NCBI GenBank assembly: GCA_964610875.1
Contig: CAZSWP010000015.1
Location: forward strand, 1-64,000
Reading direction: 5' to 3'
Length of the DNA: 64,000 bases
Origin: an uncultured archaeon
Lineage (GTDB): Archaea > Asgardarchaeota > Thorarchaeia > Thorarchaeales > Thorarchaeaceae
In this document: positions 7,564-15,817 of the stretch, in pieces
Layout of the letters: every line of letters starts with the position of its first letter
Position numbering within the stretch: the first letter of the stretch is position 1
Made by a program: the position numbers and the translations under genes
The notes under the pieces: model-generated
What the model was told of the DNA's origin: nothing
The model's input: only the letters and a program-made list of their open reading frames with translations
The model's database searches: none

Positions 7564-8115
7564 ATGAACCGTAGAAAAGAGATAAAGGCTCTCCACTCGG
7601 AGATAAGAGACTGCACCAAGTGCCCTCTACACAAGACAAGGAAGAATGCAGTGCCAGGTGAGGGTCCCCTCAATCCACAATTGATGTTTGTCGGAGAAGC
7701 CCCTGGTGCAACAGAAGATGAAACAGGGCGACCATTTGTTGGTCGTTCTGGTGAGCTTCTTGTCCAACTCATTGAAGGAATTGGTTTCTCAAGAGAGGAT
7801 GTTTTCATAACGTCGATTCTAAAATCCCGTCCTCCAGAAAATAGAACTCCGAAGAAGTCTGAGAGGAATGCTTGTCTTCCCTATCTTGAGAAACAGATTG
7901 AGCTTGTGCAACCTCTGATAATAATACTACTCGGAGGTGTAGCTATCTCTACGATGATTGGTCCGTGCAAACTATCTGAAGCTCATGGACGTTTCTACGA
8001 AGCAGAGGGACAAACCTTCTTTATGACATATCATCCCGCTGCGGCATTGAGATTTCCTAAAACAAGAGATTTGATGAAAGAAGATTTTCAGACTCTAAAG
8101 GAAGAACTCGAATAA
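7564..8115 (+). CDS. udg: Uracil-DNA glycosylase family 4
   Basis: CTKC, VPGEG, FVGEAPG, PFVG, YHPAA motifs. Confidence 0.9.
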   Translation: MNRRKEIKALHSEIRDCTKCPLHKTRKNAVPGEGPLNPQLMFVGEAPGATEDETGRPFVGRSGELLVQLIEGIGFSREDVFITSILKSRPPENRTPKKSERNACLPYLEKQIELVQPLIIILLGGVAISTMIGPCKLSEAHGRFYEAEGQTFFMTYHPAAALRFPKTRDLMKEDFQTLKEELE

Positions 8116-8150
8116 GTGGTCATTATATTATCTATCGCATACTTCACTAT

Positions 8151-8669
8151 GTGAATCATATGTTCATATTGCCAATTCTCTTGCAGATAACTCCTCCTTT
8201 CGAGGGTCCAGGATTTGAGATGTGGCAAGACATCATGGAGAATCTTCTCAATCTCTTCTTCGTTTTCTCTCAGAAAGGGTATATTTTCCTACTCATACTG
8301 GGATTCATGGTATATGCTACAACCCTAAGCGATTCTTCTGCAAAGACACTCGTTGGTTTCTCTGTGTTCTTCTATTTTGTTGGTCCCTTGATTGTAGACC
8401 TTTTAGCTAACAGTGCAGGACTCTCAATCATGACTATTGACGAAGCCGCAATTATGTGGCTTCATACTTTTGGATTGACAGACTCGGAACTTCTGTATGT
8501 GGTACTAGCAATAGGCGATTTTGTAGCTGCAGTTGCTATACTCATAGGGGCAATCCTCTACTTCAATCCCACTTCAAATGATTTGAAATCAAAGGGGCAC
8601 TCTCTAATCGTCAGAGGCTTCATTCTTCTCCCTGTCCTTGCATTTGTATATCTAATACCATGGGCTTGA
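8151..8669 (+). CDS. Hypothetical multi-pass membrane protein (possible tandem pilin-like repeat)
   Basis: About 4 hydrophobic segments; C-terminal half resembles the protein at 59356-59616. Confidence 0.7.
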   Translation: MNHMFILPILLQITPPFEGPGFEMWQDIMENLLNLFFVFSQKGYIFLLILGFMVYATTLSDSSAKTLVGFSVFFYFVGPLIVDLLANSAGLSIMTIDEAAIMWLHTFGLTDSELLYVVLAIGDFVAAVAILIGAILYFNPTSNDLKSKGHSLIVRGFILLPVLAFVYLIPWA

Positions 8670-8767: not shown

Positions 8768-10171
8768 TTGATGTCTAAAGAATCGTCGATTATGTATCGT
8801 ACTGTATCTGATGTGAGTGGTCCTCTTCTGATTGTAGAGAACACTCATGACGTTGCGTATAACGAAGTTGTAAAAATCCGCGCTCCTAATGGCGACCTTC
8901 TCACTGGTACGGTTCTTGAAACTGGAAGAGGAAAAGCTGTCATTCAAGTATTTGAGGGTACAAGTGGTCTTGATGCCGATTTGACTGCAGTGCGATTCAC
9001 CGGCGAAACCATGAAACTTCCTGTTTCATCTGAGATCCTAGGCCGTGTCCTTGATGGTGCTGGAAAACCAATTGACAAAGGTCCAATTCCCACAGCAGAA
9101 GACCATTGGGATATTTATGGCTCCCCAATCAACCCCTACGCAAGGCAATACCCACGCCAACCAATACAAACCGGTCTGTCTGTCATAGATGGTCTTAACA
9201 CACTAGTAAGAGGACAAAAACTCCCTATTTTTTCCGGTTCAGGATTGCCACACAACCGAATTGCTGCACAGATTGTTAGACAGGCTAAAATTCCGGGTGA
9301 AGAGAGTGATTTTGCCATTGTATTTGGTGCAATGGGAATTACAGCAACTGAGGCACAGTATTTCATTAACTCCTTCGAAGAAACAGGAGCTTTAGAGCAT
9401 ACCACGTTATTTCTTAATCTTGCTAATGACCCTGCGATTGAACGTATTATCACACCTCGTGCTGCACTTACCGCAGCTGAGTATCTTGCATATGAATCAG
9501 AAATACACGTCCTAGTGATTCTCACTGATATGACAAACTATGCAGAAGCATTGCGAGAGATTAGTGCTGCCAGATCGGAGATTCCTGGCCGAAGGGGATA
9601 TCCTGGGTATCTCTATACCGACCTCAGCCTGATATACGAACGTGCAGGACGGATTAATGGCAGAAAAGGTACAATCACTCAAATGCCAATACTCTCTATG
9701 CCCCAGGATGATATGACTCATCCAATACCTGACCTCTCTGGATATATCACTGAAGGTCAAATGATTGTTGGAAGAGGCCTTCATCGAAGAGGAATCTATC
9801 CTCCAATAGACCCAGGTCCGTCACTTAGCAGGCTAATGAAAGAGGGAATTGGTGAAGGAATGACCCGCTTTGACCATAAAGAAATTCAAGCTCAACTATA
9901 CTACGCCTATTCAGAGGGACGTGACCTACGTGATCTTGTTGCTGTAGTGGGATCAGAGGCACTAACGGACCGTGATCAGAAATATCTCAAATTTGCAGAC
10001 CGCTTCGAGGAAGACTTCATCGGTCAAGGAGAATTTGAGGACCGGTCTTTTGATCAAACCTTAGATATTGGTTGGGAACTTCTGAGTGAATTTCCAGAGC
10101 GTGAATTGAAACGTTGTGATCCATCTACTATCCAATGGGCTAAGGAACGTGGTGCGTATCGTCCTGTCTAG
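8768..10171 (+). CDS. atpB: A/V-type ATP synthase subunit B
   Basis: [44 protein letters not shown]. Confidence 0.98.
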
Positions 10172-10688
10172 GATATTTTTCAAGGTCCTCCACCAGTTTT
10201 TCCACAAAAAACCACCTTGTTGCATATGTATAACCATAACCATGAAGCCCTCTAATGCTTCCAAAAGCATCTCTCCATGCAGGCCACAGGATCATAAGAT
10301 GATGATGTGGCGTCAGAAAATAACATGAATACCGGTCAAGTTCTTTCTCTATTAGGAATCGTTTGAGTCTAGCTTTGAATATATCTGCTTGACCCTTTAT
10401 TCTCCATAGTGCTCCTGGTGGATAGTTATAATCTGGATAATCGTAACGTGAATATGGTATAATTGTCATCGGTTCTGATAGAATAAGTAAATCGCAATTA
10501 TCTCTAAATCTATGAAATAGTTGTTTATGTGAAACTGATTCCTGAATAGGCTTGGATTTTGAACAGGGAACGAAGAGAATTGGTTTTCCTGTAGGTTGCC
10601 ATGACTGTAGAACGGACCTTGTGAAATCAATCACATCTGGATGCTCAAAGAGATGAGATACCTTCATTTTCCTACACAAAGGCGCCAT
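10140..10688 (-). CDS. Stand-alone DUF5591 / archaeosine synthase (ArcS) core-like protein
   Basis: [14 protein letters not shown] matches the ArcS signature PC-x3-KPY-x2-S-x2-H (Y->I); LSEP..IIP and Y.YPP also present; 13 bp downstream of dpdA. Confidence 0.75.
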
Positions 10689-10701
10689 CCTTATACGAAT
10701 A

Positions 10702-11925
10702 TTAGAAATCTTCGAGGGTGGCTTGAGACGTAGATGGTTCTTCTTGGAGTATCCTCTTCAATTCGTTATAGAAGACATATGTATTATGAAATCCTCTTCT
10801 TCTATTGCGATTATTCCCTCTAAAAATAATCACTTCAATTCCTATTTGTTTACATATTGCACAATCACACTGTTTCCATGGTTTATCTTCAAGTGTTTTC
10901 TTATACAAGTCTGCATGGTCACGTGTATCTCCCATGAGTCTATCATACCAGAGAAGTGCTTCTAACACTTCATCAATATCCGCATCACCTCTATCAAAAG
11001 CCCGGAGTAGCGTCATGCATCCTCTCTCATATGCGGCAAGTTCTTCATACTCTATCTTTCCCGCTTCTACAATCTTCTTTGCACGAGGACTCTTGTCAGA
11101 TTGAGGGACTCGTAGGGCAGCATAGCCTTTATCCCCGGAAAGAATGTAGTTGGACCTAGCTCCTAACCATGAACGTCGTAGGTGAGATGCGGAATCAAAT
11201 GAAGACAAGCCAAGTTCTTGAAGAGTACGAAGTGCATTGATTCTGGCCACACCAAAGAGATGTACTTTGATATCATCATCGTGCTTTTCAATCACATCAT
11301 GAACTGCTCGCATAACCTTGAGAATGTTCGATGTCTGAGCGCGAGTGAGCCCTCCTATTGCAATATACTTGTATCCCATATCGAGAAGAGCCTTGACTGC
11401 ATCCTGATATGATGAAGGATTCCAACCTTGTGCTGCACCTATGGGTACGTAAGAATACGCTCTTTCTTGATGACGTTTCAAAAAAGATTCAGCATTTTTC
11501 ATGGTTAAATCAAAACGATACTGTTTCTCATCTTCCACTGCAGGTACAATGAGATGGTCTACACTGACTCCATAGTCAAATCCTAATGCGTTGTAATAAT
11601 CCGCTATCTCGACTGGAGAGAAGGGTGGGTCACGGTCATTGATATAACCATATGCTCCACAATCACCAAATACAGGTCCCTTGAAATTGAGATGCTCATG
11701 AATACCGCTTTTTTGTACTCGACGGAGATTCTTTTTGTTCTCTTCTATCTTGACCTTTGAAACAAGAATTCCGTCATAAGGTGCAGTTCCATATATCTCA
11801 TGAGATGTTACCTTTAATCCATCAGTAGGAGTATCATTGATGAAATCATAATTCAAATCCACTAAGTCATCCCACCAAGGGATGAAATACATGATGTCTC
11901 TCTTTTGTGGTTGACTTTTGGACAT
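10702..11925 (-). CDS. dpdA: DpdA-type 7-deazaguanine transglycosylase (TGT paralogue acting on DNA)
   Basis: YFIPWWDDLVD, YDGILVS, GDCGAY, GFDYGVSVDH, QGW, AIGGL, HLFGV, FDSAS, PWKQCDCAIC...FRGNNRNRRRGFHN are characteristic of DpdA rather than tRNA TGT; no PUA domain. Confidence 0.88.
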   Translation of the reverse strand: MSKSQPQKRDIMYFIPWWDDLVDLNYDFINDTPTDGLKVTSHEIYGTAPYDGILVSKVKIEENKKNLRRVQKSGIHEHLNFKGPVFGDCGAYGYINDRDPPFSPVEIADYYNALGFDYGVSVDHLIVPAVEDEKQYRFDLTMKNAESFLKRHQERAYSYVPIGAAQGWNPSSYQDAVKALLDMGYKYIAIGGLTRAQTSNILKVMRAVHDVIEKHDDDIKVHLFGVARINALRTLQELGLSSFDSASHLRRSWLGARSNYILSGDKGYAALRVPQSDKSPRAKKIVEAGKIEYEELAAYERGCMTLLRAFDRGDADIDEVLEALLWYDRLMGDTRDHADLYKKTLEDKPWKQCDCAICKQIGIEVIIFRGNNRNRRRGFHNTYVFYNELKRILQEEPSTSQATLEDF

Positions 11926-12014
11926 GGAGTAATCCTCTACCGTTTCTTTGTTTTTTGACTACCTTATCAACACATCCCTTTTATCGGGACACCAACCTGC
12001 TTGATGTGGTCGAT

Positions 12015-12737
12015 ATGAGAATATGTGTTGTTGGAAGCTGCGGAAAGAGAAAAGCGACCTCCAGTCCACAATCTCCCACTTGTAAAGACATACCCTCGAA
12101 AGAGGCCCTTGTAAAATGGCAAAAAAAGCTAAAACATCTCTGTCGTCCAGCTCGTGACTTATATGTAGGCTCTCAACCCACAGAATTGACAAAAGGCGTA
12201 TCTCTTCTAAGACAGGCTGATGGTGTATCTGTAGACTACTATATCATATCTGCAGGATTTGGTTTCTTGAGAGAAGATGAGCTTGTTCCTCCCTATGAAT
12301 GCTCGTTTGCTGGCATGTCAAAATCTAGAATCGTATCAAGGGCTGATGCATTATCAATACCCAATGATTTTGAAAAAGTCGTAAGAACTGGATATGATAT
12401 TCTGTATCTTGCTTTAGGTAAGAACTATCTCACTTCTCTGGGTACTTCTTGGGTTGATTTACTTAATGGGACAGTAGTAATTCTGTTTGGTGCTACTTGT
12501 CCGTCTGATAACATCATAAGTCTACCCTCAGACAATGCCATTGTACGAAGATTTTCACAGAGTGGGTATAAGATACATGGTGCAGTTGGGTTCAAAGGAG
12601 ATCTCTTCAGGATTCTTGCAAGCAGTGTTATGAGTTGTAGTGATCCACATAGCGAGCTAATGGGATGGTTGGAACCTACTTATTTCAAACAAGTCTTTTC
12701 TGACATGACATCTGCTAGACAAACATATTTGTCATAG
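12015..12737 (+). CDS. DUF6884/YaaA-like protein of the type often found with dpdA
   Basis: VVGSCGKRK, PARDLYVG, YIISAGFG...VPPYECSF; ATG at 12015 avoids overlap with dpdA. Confidence 0.7.
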   Translation: MRICVVGSCGKRKATSSPQSPTCKDIPSKEALVKWQKKLKHLCRPARDLYVGSQPTELTKGVSLLRQADGVSVDYYIISAGFGFLREDELVPPYECSFAGMSKSRIVSRADALSIPNDFEKVVRTGYDILYLALGKNYLTSLGTSWVDLLNGTVVILFGATCPSDNIISLPSDNAIVRRFSQSGYKIHGAVGFKGDLFRILASSVMSCSDPHSELMGWLEPTYFKQVFSDMTSARQTYLS

Positions 12738-13601
12738 TGTGATTTTCTCTCTCTCCAATTCTACTTTAGCGTGTTGTCCCTTTTCAGTATCATCATAATA
12801 GATAACACAACTAATGGTAAATGAATTCACTGGCTTTGCCATCGTTACTGTGACCATACACTCTGTTTCATATGGTTCTGGGCTTAGAGATGCCTCAATA
12901 AAACCAATGATAATTCTATTTTGTTTAGGGTCGTATGAATACGGTTTGACGTGTTTAATCTTGAAGTTAGGACCAAGTTCTAATTCAAGTTCCACATTTT
13001 GATATGGATGTAGGATATTATTAGTTAGACCTATAGTCAAGAGAATTTCATCAGTTCCCTTCCTCTCAATTCTTTTAACCAATGTAGCCATGGGTGGAAC
13101 ATACTTTTTCTTCTGCGATTTTCGTCCACGTCGACTCTTCGTTGCTTTGCGCTTTTCAGCCGGTAGAGCTTTCCTTCCCTCATATGGCCCTTCTTCCAGT
13201 TTTGATGGGTCTTCATCCCATTTAAGTAGAGTTCGAAAAGTAGCCACTTTAAACGTGTTTAACTTGCCTGACTCAATCCTTTGTTCGCTCTGTGCCTCAC
13301 GTACCACTTCCACAATCTCATCACGTAGGGCTGCCATTTTTATTTTCTCGAGATTTTCATCAGCCCTCAAAGTCTTTGCCCAAGTATCAATAAATTTGAT
13401 GATTTTCTTTCCAGTTGGTATTTTCTCTTCATTCTCTGCAAACCAAGCTTTTCTAGTGGTTCTTGAATAATCAAAAGGCGAAAACCGCGTACAGGCTTTC
13501 TGCCATTCCTTTAGATCTTGCTTTGCGAGATCACCCCTCAGCAATTCTCTGATGTATTTCTTTTTCTTGGGTGAAATCTCAACCTTTTTCTTCTCTGACA
13601 T
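12732..13601 (-). CDS. Hypothetical protein: helical N-domain, basic linker, C-terminal Ig-like beta-sandwich
   Basis: Long ORF; alternating hydrophobic strands in last ~120 aa; start at MSEKK chosen. Confidence 0.7.
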   Translation of the reverse strand: MSEKKKVEISPKKKKYIRELLRGDLAKQDLKEWQKACTRFSPFDYSRTTRKAWFAENEEKIPTGKKIIKFIDTWAKTLRADENLEKIKMAALRDEIVEVVREAQSEQRIESGKLNTFKVATFRTLLKWDEDPSKLEEGPYEGRKALPAEKRKATKSRRGRKSQKKKYVPPMATLVKRIERKGTDEILLTIGLTNNILHPYQNVELELELGPNFKIKHVKPYSYDPKQNRIIIGFIEASLSPEPYETECMVTVTMAKPVNSFTISCVIYYDDTEKGQHAKVELEREKITL

Positions 13602-13837
13602 GAGTTTTACATCCCCCTGAGTGTGACACTCAAAATTCTGCATCATTCTATTAGAGGGAACACCAATATAAATTCTTCCGCAATAGATATTCTGTATATC
13701 ACTTGCAACATTTACTTCAAACTAATTAGTACTGTACAATCTTATATAAAGTCCTAGAAGCCATAGAAAAATCAGATATACTTGAAAATAATCCCTTTTC
13801 CAAGAACTGGATATGAGACCTTTAGAACACAAAGGAA

Positions 13838-14179
13838 CTATTCCGATTCTATTCCAAATTTCAGATAATGTCCTTTTTCCTTTTTAGTACCAAAGCTCCT
13901 GAGGCCCTCTGATTTGAGTTGCCTCTTGATGTCCCTGGCCATTGAGTTTGTGAGTTCGCCACTCTTTACAAGATATTCTAAAATCTCCAAAGCTTGAGAA
14001 ACCGTATCACATCTTCTAATGTAATCAACAACACTAGGAATGTAGGTCCTTGGCTCTGATGGTTTGTCTGAATCTTCTGACATAACTCGGACCCCATCTA
14101 TCTGGTATTCTTGCGTTTCGCTAGACTCCAGCTCCTTCGCCAATGCAGGATAGTTTTTTCGGAACTCTTCGTCCTTCAT
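13838..14179 (-). CDS. DUF2095 family protein
   Basis: FRKNYPALAKEL, P.VVDYIRRCDT, GLRSFG.KK..G.Y. Confidence 0.85.
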   Translation of the reverse strand: MKDEEFRKNYPALAKELESSETQEYQIDGVRVMSEDSDKPSEPRTYIPSVVDYIRRCDTVSQALEILEYLVKSGELTNSMARDIKRQLKSEGLRSFGTKKEKGHYLKFGIESE

Positions 14180-14266: not shown

Positions 14267-15817
14267 CTAGTTATTGATGAATTTCCAAGGGAGTGTAGCT
14301 TTGTTCCTGTTTTCTTGGCTTGCAATCTCAAAAAATGGGATTCCAGTGTTCTTTTCTGCTCGTCTCCATCCCCCCAATCCTCCATATTTAGCTGCTTCAA
14401 TTATGACACGACCTAATGTTCTGTCACCAATTGAGAGAGCGGCTTGAATTCGAGCATTTCTTGGGTCTAGAAATTCTGTCTTTACTCTTGAAACATTCTT
14501 TAGTTCATCTTCTATCTGCTTGAACTTACTTCGCATCTCACTTAGAGTCGGTTGTGGCTTAGTTTCCCATCTCGTTTGTGCCTTTGGAATGAATGGATTG
14601 ACATTCGCAACCACACGTAAACCTGAAATCTCAGCTATTGCCTTGGACATTTCTGCAATAGATGAAACATCATCTACAGTTTCACCAGGAAGACCTACAA
14701 TGTAGTATGCCTTGATCGAAAGGTATCTGGTTTCAGCGGCAAGCTCTGCAGCTTTAAAGATGGCATCATCCGAGAGACCTTTCCCTAGGTCTCTTCTCAG
14801 CCTTGCAGAGCCAGTTTCAGGTGCAATTGTAAGAGTCCTCTGCCCTCCTCTATGCAATGCATGTAGGAGTTCCAAAGTCACAGTGTCTGCTCTGAGAGAA
14901 GGTACTGAGAGTTCAAGTTCTTGATCCACAATCCATGTGGATAGCGAATCCAACGAATCTAAATCACCAAGCGAAGATGCAATGAGTGAAACTTTTCTAA
15001 CTGGTGTTTCTTGAAGCCCTTGTTCGATAATATCTATCAATCTTTGCAGACTTCGGACACGTCTGGGTCTACAGACATGACCAATTAGGCAGAACTTGCA
15101 GGAATGACCACAACCCCGACTTACTTCTACGAGAAGCGACCTACCAAAGACAGAATCTAGCTTCTGTTCTTCATCTTCGAAAGGAATCACCTGTGCGGTT
15201 GGATGAAAGAGTGGGTCTACATCTTGGATTATTAGACGCTTGACATGTGTCGAAACATCTGGTACATATACACCTTCCAATCCTGCCAAACTTAGTATAC
15301 TTTCATCGCGACTTTTGGAATTCTTCACAATCTCAATTATCTCACTAATCACCAAGTCCCCTTCACCAATAACAAACACATCAACAATATCCGCGTATGG
15401 TTCAGGATTTGCGCTTACAGCTGGACCCCCTACAAGAACAATGGGATCGTTTGCCCGTCGCGACTTTGATTCAGCTGAAATGCCTGCTTGAGTAAGCATC
15501 TGAACGAGATTGATTATATCTTCCTCATAGGTCAAAGAAAAGCCAACAATATGATTATCTTCGAGCTTTCTTGCTGTTTCTACAGAATGTACCGCAGATG
15601 GAACATCATATCGAAAATACCTCTCACAAGATGTATCTTCTCGCTGATTGAGAATTGAATAGAACAGATGACTTGCGAGACCTGTCATACCTGCCCGATA
15701 AGTCGAGGGGTAACAGTAGCCAAAAAGAACATCGACACGACTAATGTCCTTCCGAACTGCATTATATTCTCTGAGGACCTTCCCGCGCAAGATACCCCCC
15801 TCAATCAGTTCCATCAA
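14267..15817 (-). CDS. Radical SAM protein (B12-binding-like N-domain, YPxxYxxGM class)
   Basis: YPSTYRAGMTGL, EVSRGCGHSCKFC, SLRAD, TIAPETGS, FIPKAQT. Confidence 0.88.
   Translation of the reverse strand: MMELIEGGILRGKVLREYNAVRKDISRVDVLFGYCYPSTYRAGMTGLASHLFYSILNQREDTSCERYFRYDVPSAVHSVETARKLEDNHIVGFSLTYEEDIINLVQMLTQAGISAESKSRRANDPIVLVGGPAVSANPEPYADIVDVFVIGEGDLVISEIIEIVKNSKSRDESILSLAGLEGVYVPDVSTHVKRLIIQDVDPLFHPTAQVIPFEDEEQKLDSVFGRSLLVEVSRGCGHSCKFCLIGHVCRPRRVRSLQRLIDIIEQGLQETPVRKVSLIASSLGDLDSLDSLSTWIVDQELELSVPSLRADTVTLELLHALHRGGQRTLTIAPETGSARLRRDLGKGLSDDAIFKAAELAAETRYLSIKAYYIVGLPGETVDDVSSIAEMSKAIAEISGLRVVANVNPFIPKAQTRWETKPQPTLSEMRSKFKQIEDELKNVSRVKTEFLDPRNARIQAALSIGDRTLGRVIIEAAKYGGLGGWRRAEKNTGIPFFEIASQENRNKATLPWKFINN

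Follow-up and report, generated by a model that had tools for sequence, protein, structure and literature searches.

A chromosomal island of Thorarchaeaceae joins a bacterial-type DpdA to a DpdC-like protein and a stand-alone ArcS core: a candidate DNA-modification module

Introduction

Do the chromosomes of Asgard archaea, to which eukaryotes are more closely related than to any other prokaryotes, encode machinery of their own for placing 7-deazaguanines in DNA? To our knowledge, such bases have been established in DNA only in bacteria (Dpd) and in viruses. The question is raised by a stretch of 64 000 nucleotides from an uncultured archaeon of the Thorarchaeaceae (Asgardarchaeota; assembly GCA_964610875.1, contig CAZSWP010000015.1, positions 1 to 64 000; hereafter the window). 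An earlier note, made from the letters alone, had described a cassette of three genes there, directly after atpB and overlapping its 3′ end: a DpdA-type transglycosylase, a small protein carrying the ArcS signature and a divergent DUF6884 gene. All three genes lie where that note had placed them, and we find that a fourth, orf304, belongs with them. The island combines parts that are known separately from bacteria and from viruses, and by analogy with these its function is most likely the modification of DNA.

Results

The central gene, dpdA (10702..11925, reverse strand), encodes a protein of 407 amino acids that scores 418.4 bits against the NCBIfam DpdA model NF041059 (cut-off 200), compared with 55.8 bits for arcTGT (TgtA) and 21.8 bits for bacterial Tgt. 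It scores 381 bits against the PADLOC DpdA model and is devoid of the C1, C2 and PUA RNA-binding domains. The transglycosylase is thus a DpdA and not a tRNA enzyme, as had been supposed. It matches DpdA of Salmonella Montevideo (PDB entry 7UI4) with an E-value of 2.8e-73, and the alignment places D88, D123 and D244 on Asp95, Asp130 and Asp256 of that enzyme, residues that have been shown or proposed to be essential (Asp95 and Asp256 in catalysis, Asp130 in base binding; PMC10164549). The catalytic and zinc motifs are intact: across 11 Asgard DpdAs, neither the three aspartates nor the zinc-site residues C353, C355, C358 and H380 (CxCxxC...H) vary. His181 of the Salmonella enzyme is replaced by glutamine in all 11, and Phe99 by tyrosine in the protein of the window. 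By analogy with the characterized enzymes, this DpdA most likely exchanges guanine in DNA for a 7-deazaguanine, presumably preQ0.

The earlier note had proposed a virus-style module, a description that stands for the pairing of DpdA with a stand-alone ArcS core, as found in viruses, but not for the type of DpdA. The nearest non-Asgard relatives among species-representative genomes are bacterial (42–51% identity), and a search of 50 697 phage records returned one unannotated contig only; we therefore class the protein as a bacterial-type DpdA and not as one of the phage types DpdA1–4. DpdA of the Sulfolobus virus STSV2 (291 amino acids) is not retrieved with the window's DpdA at E <= 1e-5. In a FastTree phylogeny, the Thorarchaeota DpdAs form one clade (support 99) near the base of the clade of bacterial fusion proteins described below; since the deep nodes of this tree are not resolved, we claim no direction of transfer.

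Dpd systems have a DUF6884 protein, DpdC, which converts dPreQ0 to dADG and is assigned to this family in the literature. The DUF6884 gene of the island (12015..12737, forward strand, 240 amino acids) is separated from dpdA by a divergent intergenic region of 89 bp (11926..12014), which presumably holds the promoters and contains a TTTTAT-like stretch about 30 nt 5′ of the ATG at 12015. This ATG is the likely start; a GTG at 11907 opens the same frame earlier, and a start there would make the gene overlap dpdA. The protein carries both DUF6884 motifs, SCGKRK (CxxxK) and IISAGFG (LSAxxG), with C9, K13, I77, S79 and A80 invariant in its alignment and G83 nearly so. Its score against the Pfam DUF6884 model, 26.7 bits, does not reach the cut-off of 30, with relatives scoring 31–85, and the protein matches the PADLOC DpdC model with an E-value of 1.4e-9 over model positions 5–115 of 312 only.

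Gene context points the same way. Among the 80 best DpdA loci, drawn from 185 579 species genomes, a region aligning with residues 1–230 of this protein (28–33% identity) lies just upstream of DpdA in 74. In 66 of these 80, all of them bacterial, the DpdC-like domain and DpdA form a single open reading frame of 670–716 codons; PADLOC, run on one of these fusions, places DpdC-like sequence at 13–118 and DpdA at 290–679. Where the earlier note had recognized no dpdC, the DUF6884 gene, judged from its sequence, is itself DpdC-like. The hosts of the fusions are chiefly cyanobacteria, Bacillota, Chloroflexota and Pseudomonadota (for example L079:5128-7173 and L081:5170-7182). In two PADLOC-annotated fusion loci, a 400-residue protein and a HerA-type ATPase stand in place of DpdB, no DpdB was found in the bacterial fusion loci that were examined, and clusters with the size and placement of queC/D/E recur in other such loci. 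Our literature search returned no paper on bacterial DpdC::DpdA fusions.

The association extends to other Asgard archaea. Of 19 Asgard DpdA loci, which represent six families, about 17 have a DUF6884 gene no more than about 4 kb from DpdA and in most cases immediately next to it. This gene encodes either a short protein (150–165 residues) or a long one; the short proteins have as their best match a PADLOC candidate-defence family. In one of these other families (L047:12004-12561, L046:4057-4614 and L058:4119-4703), a gene for a transporter of the QueT type (PF06177) is found some 1.6 kb downstream of DUF6884–DpdA, which suggests salvage there; a conserved 402-residue protein that matches no family is also encoded downstream. 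In a further family (L050, L051, L060 and L061), a NUDIX gene precedes DpdA, after which come a short DUF6884 gene and genes for a UvrD-type helicase (GajB being its best PADLOC match), a protein with gelsolin repeats and an EndoIII-like glycosylase; the neighbourhood resembles one of DNA repair or defence.

The ArcS-core gene (10140..10688, reverse strand, 182 amino acids) starts 13 nt past the dpdA stop codon, and given this gap the two genes are likely co-transcribed. Its product scores 39.1 bits against Pfam DUF5591 (PF17884; cut-off 26) and only 33.1 bits against the full-length ArcS model NF040592 (cut-off 440), of which the C1 core alone is covered. DUF5591 stands alone here, with no TGT, C2 or PUA domain, and the ArcS signature noticed earlier ([14 protein letters not shown], residues 41–54) is intact. 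P41, C42, K46, P47, S51 and H54 do not vary among the Thorarchaeota homologues, ArcS2 of STSV2 and the C1 domain of the host ArcS; the tyrosine of the published KPY motif is replaced by isoleucine or valine in the Thorarchaeota proteins (isoleucine in the window). Some archaea are known to encode the ArcS C1 domain alone (PMC10516641).

An AlphaFold2 model of the ArcS core (mean predicted local distance difference test score, pLDDT, 87.7) has AF0587 (PDB entry 2Q07) as its best structural match (Foldseek E-value 3e-5, Z-score 13.9). All others have Z-scores of 6 or less, and the second tier, which includes uracil-DNA glycosylase (UDG), SMUG1 and YaaA-like structures including E. coli YaaA (Z about 5.8), is by itself within noise. 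A complex prediction for DpdA and the ArcS core gave a score of 0.01, which counts neither way. An exhaustive search with a profile, over 1.84 billion representative proteins, returned only 204 relatives at E <= 1e-3 and, at the stricter limit of E <= 1e-10, 26; the named homologues are annotated as Thorarchaeota or ‘Lokiarchaeota’ metagenome-assembled genomes (MAGs). Viral matches are limited to ArcS2 of the Sulfolobus viruses STSV1, STSV2 and STSV4 (25% identity, E = 1e-4). One stand-alone DUF5591 relative adjoins a 394-residue TGT-family gene on an unrelated 76 kb contig; for the remote stand-alone proteins, most contigs are too short to inform on context. The closest relative outside Thorarchaeota (43% identity) lies within a 520-residue Asn/Lys-rich protein from marine sediment (L068:146-1708; residues 208–343), between N- and C-terminal regions without assignment.

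The DpdC-like protein and the ArcS core share a Cys-x3-Lys motif, which the earlier note had described as related. Alignment of the two families as profiles (hhalign; 160 DUF5591 and 80 DUF6884 sequences) gives a probability of 93.9% in local mode and 90.6% in global mode, with an E-value of 1.6e-7; these deep alignments replaced shallow ones, which had given 15%. The global alignment sets PCSKSKP over SCGKRK and LILSEP over IISAGF, so that C-x3-K and (I/L)(I/L)S are in register. The two proteins are thus related, and this remote homology makes a common mechanism open to testing.

The fourth gene, orf304 (12732..13646, reverse strand, 304 amino acids), matches nothing in Pfam, NCBIfam or PADLOC. 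It adjoins the cassette in every Thorarchaeota locus examined, and its product is homologous to the C-terminal halves of proteins of 533 and 521 residues (E = 1.9e-12 and 4.7e-6) whose N-terminal half is DUF6884 and whose genes, in another two Asgard families, stand immediately upstream of DpdA. The cassette of three genes therefore has to be extended to an island of four, of which orf304 is a member. In its AlphaFold2 model (pLDDT 84.8), a helical domain is followed by a Lys/Arg-rich linker and a C-terminal β-sandwich; Foldseek finds only generic matches of the latter to GAE, appendage and ApaG-type folds, and no ParB-like fold is seen in the model.

The island lies between atpB (8768-10171, forward strand) and a DUF2095 gene (13838-14179, reverse strand). 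The overlap with atpB that the earlier note had reported is genuine: the two genes converge over 32 bp (10140-10171), which touch only the non-conserved, low-confidence tail of the ArcS-core protein. The same arrangement, at the same atpB/DUF2095 site, is found in five other genomes from three other genera, that is in four genera in all, so that the neighbourhood is conserved. Since it recurs in this way and the ratios of nonsynonymous to synonymous substitution (dN/dS) are 0.03-0.12, the arrangement is far beyond chance. Between two congeneric genomes in which dS is unsaturated (0.48-0.67), dN/dS is 0.029 for DpdA, 0.062 for the ArcS core, 0.069 for orf304 and 0.121 for the DpdC-like gene, compared with 0.042 for atpB; all four island genes are under purifying selection. 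Across relatives, the cassette genes share 50–66% identity and atpB 86–96%, and the G+C content of the island is not distinct from the remainder of the window. A chromosomal, vertically inherited island of four genes is the best explanation of these observations.

Of 400 genomes from the phylum, 25 carry DpdA. Among 86 genomes of the family, 31 carry the DpdC-like gene, seven DpdA (six intact and one remnant of 75 residues) and seven the ArcS core, the last being the six genomes with intact DpdA, that of the window included, and one in which the copy is cut by a contig end. The site occurs in three states. When full, it reads atpB, ArcS core, DpdA, DpdC-like, orf304, DUF2095. When reduced, the DpdC-like gene follows 60–100 bp past atpB and precedes orf304 (sometimes its helical domain only), with neither DpdA nor the ArcS core discernible at the site or anywhere else in these genomes (for example L174, L175, L178, L183, L188 and L189–L198). 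When empty, atpB adjoins DUF2095. Throughout the family, an intact DpdA is flanked by the ArcS core and, on the opposite side, by the DpdC-like gene, and the latter also occurs in about 24 genomes without DpdA, where it retains both motifs. The DpdA remnant (genome G385; L029/L054) is a C-terminal fragment at a different locus, beside an orf304-like gene.

The tRNA pathway is encoded elsewhere in the source genome, with arcTGT (495 bits) on contig C1 and ArcS (364 bits) on contig C37, where RaSEA (356 bits) lies directly downstream. The island is therefore not needed for archaeosine in tRNA. A MrfA-like helicase (DEAD and MZB, 773 amino acids) lies directly upstream of ArcS–RaSEA on C37 (10000-29000), and a NurA-like/HerA/Mre11/Rad50 operon about 3 kb beyond RaSEA. 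This HerA is 41% identical to the HerA beside bacterial DpdC::DpdA fusions; we considered the HerA/NurA-like genes as a hidden effector of the island and rejected them, as they belong to a HerA/Mre11/Rad50 repair operon.

Searches for DpdB/DndB (PDLC02811 and PF14072) in the source genome and four other cassette-bearing genomes (96–99% complete) gave no match, which extends to these genomes what had been noted for the window; as for controls, the PADLOC model matched nowhere and the Pfam model matched in Bacillus subtilis. QueC is above its cut-off in one of the 86 family genomes and in none of the five DpdA-bearing genomes tested, and QueE, QueT and YhhQ were not detected in these five. The best ‘QueC’ and ‘QueE’ matches were rejected as LarE and NrdG, and a QueD-like gene beside a MptA/FolE2-type cyclohydrolase does not reach the QueD cut-off and may belong to pterin synthesis. 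The host preQ0 pool on which the module had been proposed to draw is thus not inferable from the genome, although some supply must exist, because the host arcTGT needs the same base.

The remaining neighbours of the island include a GlmU-like gene and a B12-type radical SAM gene (14267-15817), which we considered as RaSEA and rejected. As the earlier note had stated, no restriction-type, integrase or preQ0 gene is recognizable among the annotated neighbours, in a scan that covered about 5.7–17.2 kb and not the rest of the window; linked dpdD–K restriction genes are likewise absent from the neighbours, the rest of the genome not having been searched for them. Between atpA and atpB (7564-8669) lie a uracil-DNA glycosylase of the family-4 type (PF03167, E = 6.5e-36) and a membrane protein of 172 amino acids, which also split the ATPase genes in other Thorarchaeota genomes (clusters c5 and c18 in L055–L057). 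The stretch is matched by DNA sequencing runs (metagenomes) of one microbial-mat study; no RNA sequencing run containing it was found.

Discussion

What, then, does the island do? We consider it somewhat probable that it is a restriction-less 7-deazaguanine DNA-modification module that works independently of DpdB. The family memberships, the intact catalytic motifs, the synteny, the gene fusions and the purifying selection are observed; as to substrate, DNA target, order of steps and product, we infer the following. DpdA would remove guanine from double-stranded DNA and insert a 7-deazaguanine base, by analogy preQ0. As its synthesis genes are undetectable, this base must be salvaged. The partner of DpdA would be the DpdC-like DUF6884 protein, with orf304, in place of the ParB-like ATPase DpdB. 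The two Cys-x3-Lys enzymes, remote homologues of each other, would then process the nitrile of the inserted base. The ArcS core might add an amine to give an amidine, either 2′-deoxyarchaeosine (dG+) or, without RaSEA-type cleavage, a lysine adduct; the DpdC-like protein might hydrate the nitrile to the amide (dADG, or 2′-deoxy-7-amido-7-deazaguanosine), make the base accessible to DpdA, or do both. The candidate products are dG+, a lysine amidine, dADG or something unexpected, as in STSV2. With no linked restriction partner, the mark would be an orphan self-mark.

Published work gives this proposal some footing. DpdA2 and ArcS2 of phage nt-1 yield dG+ in E. coli (PMC10516641). Thermococcus ArcS moves lysine onto preQ0, the bare nucleotide included, and is thus independent of the tRNA context (PMC11298593). 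The order of the pair in STSV1 and STSV2, DpdA and then the ArcS core, supports the proposal by analogy.

Several observations weigh against it. STSV2 has the same enzyme pair, yet its DNA contains dCDG and not dG+ (PMC10516641). Thermococcus ArcS requires RaSEA to finish archaeosine (PMC11298593), and the island has no RaSEA gene linked to it. Salmonella DpdA requires DpdB, found in none of the five cassette-bearing genomes, and the DpdC-like protein covers only the first 115 or so of the 312 positions of the DpdC model. Since QueC, QueE, QueT and YhhQ went undetected, the proposal leaves the source and identity of the base unexplained. DpdA is present in only seven of the 86 family genomes, and one of the seven ArcS-core genes (G324; L057:10100-10720) is frameshifted directly past PCSKYKPIQES, either as a pseudogene or through an error of MAG assembly. 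Finally, the DpdC-like gene and orf304 are kept intact in the roughly 24 family genomes that have neither DpdA nor the ArcS core, and must therefore have a role independent of DpdA. To see in the DUF6884 protein a tailoring enzyme, as had been proposed for both Cys-x3-Lys proteins, is for this reason too narrow.

This persistence keeps alive two explanations in which DpdA is not the heart of the matter. In one, the DUF6884/orf304 pair is the core of the island and maintains DNA by the recognition or processing of bases that are damaged or unusual, a role that has been proposed for YaaA and YfjM; to this pair DpdA and the ArcS core would be accessory, and the outcome would be repair or damage tolerance and not a programmed mark. 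The much wider spread of the DpdC-like gene than of DpdA in the family, with motifs intact where DpdA is absent, would fit, as would the prediction by the Pfam authors that DUF6884 binds DNA and flips bases (PMC11701544), the company that the DpdA/DUF6884 pair keeps in a different Asgard family (a UvrD helicase, EndoIII and a NUDIX protein) and the weak resemblance of the ArcS-core model to UDG/SMUG1/YaaA-like structures. However, that resemblance is within the range of noise, DpdA is a base-exchange enzyme whose 7-deazaguanine pocket is conserved with that of Salmonella, the ArcS motif is specific to the chemistry of the preQ0 nitrile, and the bacterial fusions lie in defence islands with queC/D/E-like genes, all of which makes maintenance an unlikely primary function. 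In the other explanation, the island is directed against viruses and would recognize, rewrite or remove 7-deazaguanine marks on foreign DNA and not on the chromosome, which would account for both the stand-alone DUF6884/orf304 pair and the lack of a linked restriction enzyme. Its patchy distribution, in which DpdA and the ArcS core have been lost repeatedly, the faster evolution of the cassette genes relative to atpB, the candidate-defence match of the short DUF6884 proteins, the defence islands of the bacterial relatives and the presence of DpdA/ArcS2 in archaeal viruses would all be in keeping with this. But the site is a fixed housekeeping one with no mobile-element or defence neighbours and no linked effector nuclease, and the activity itself would be without precedent and is pure conjecture; we regard it as quite unlikely.

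Two further explanations question the target or the activity of DpdA. That its half of the island is a decaying, non-working relic, short of a substrate or a partner, is suggested by the missing genes for preQ0 synthesis and known import, the loss of the DpdA/ArcS-core pair in most of the family, the 75-residue fragment in G385 and the frameshift in G324. It is hard to reconcile with dN/dS values as low as that of atpB, with catalytic residues that are all invariant across four genera and with a host arcTGT for which the same base must be supplied, and we hold it to be very unlikely. We give even less credence to a second archaeosine-type pathway acting on RNA, tRNA or other, and not on DNA. 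ArcS-type enzymes do natively act on RNA, the host has the 7-deazaguanine tRNA genes arcTGT, ArcS and RaSEA, and the DpdC-like gene is kept where the tRNA route alone would be expected to give a preQ0-bearing nucleic acid (arcTGT having been checked in the source genome only). Yet the score as DpdA far exceeds that as arcTGT (418 against 56 bits), neither DpdA nor the ArcS core has the RNA-binding domains (C1, C2 and PUA in the one case, PUA in the other), the full tRNA pathway is already encoded elsewhere, and every characterized DpdA acts on DNA (PMC10516641).

We thus return to the DpdB-independent DNA-modification module, which, as an inherited and selected Asgard system, would extend 7-deazaguanine DNA chemistry to archaeal cells. 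One locus unites the bacterial partner of DpdA (DpdC-like) with its viral partner (the ArcS core), and the island, together with the abundant bacterial DpdC::DpdA fusions, points to base insertion that is independent of DpdB. Marks in Asgard DNA may then affect restriction, sequencing signals and virus–host conflict. The family-wide lack of QueC beside arcTGT, ArcS and RaSEA (one genome checked) also raises the question of how the base is obtained. One may go further and suppose jointly that some Asgard chromosomes carry an archaeosine-type or lysine-amidine 7-deazaguanine, made from a salvaged precursor by a DpdB-independent DpdA/DUF6884 pair with no linked restriction enzyme; that DUF5591 and DUF6884 are two branches, for amidines and amides, of one Cys–Lys family that activates the preQ0 nitrile; and that DUF6884/orf304 has a second job without DpdA. 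Such a combination is conceivable, although we would rather doubt it as a whole.

Comparison with known systems

In the literature searched we found no paper on a chromosomal archaeal island of DpdA, DpdC-like and ArcS-core genes, and the BREX-related TGT/HerA system (PMC12839542) was rejected as a different system. The Dpd system of Salmonella Montevideo (PDB entry 7UI4; PMC10164549) shares with the island a homologous DpdA, with the same catalytic aspartates and zinc site, and a DUF6884 (DpdC-family) gene beside it. The island differs in that neither DpdB, a ParB/DndB-like ATPase, nor linked dpdD–K were detected, in the shorter reach of its DpdC-like protein along the DpdC model, in the replacement of His181 by glutamine, in the addition of the ArcS core and orf304, and in its archaeal host.

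The bacterial DpdC-like::DpdA fusions (in Desulfosporosinus fructosivorans, Paenibacillus tyrfis and many cyanobacteria) provide the closest non-Asgard DpdA and the same DUF6884 partner (over about 230 residues), also with no DpdB in the loci examined. They are single polypeptides, in defence islands with the 400-residue protein, the HerA-type ATPase and queC/D/E-like genes, whereas in the island the two genes are separate and divergent, such neighbours are absent and the ArcS core is added.

The ArcS/RaSEA system of tRNA (PMC11298593) has the same catalytic core fold and motif as the ArcS core of the island, which however is without the N-terminal TGT-like, C2 and PUA domains and has no linked RaSEA; the true ArcS–RaSEA pair of the source genome lies on a separate contig. 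The closest parallel for the pairing itself is in STSV1 and STSV2 (STSV2_15/16) and in Vibrio phage nt-1, where a stand-alone DUF5591 protein with PC-x3-KP-x3-S-x2-H is likewise encoded directly past DpdA (PMC10516641); deazaguanine synthesis genes were found neither in the host of STSV2 nor in the Asgard host. Compared with these viral pairs, the island has KPI/V in place of KPY, a DpdA of bacterial type, and a DpdC-like gene and orf304 in addition, and it is cellular, chromosomal and inherited at a fixed site.

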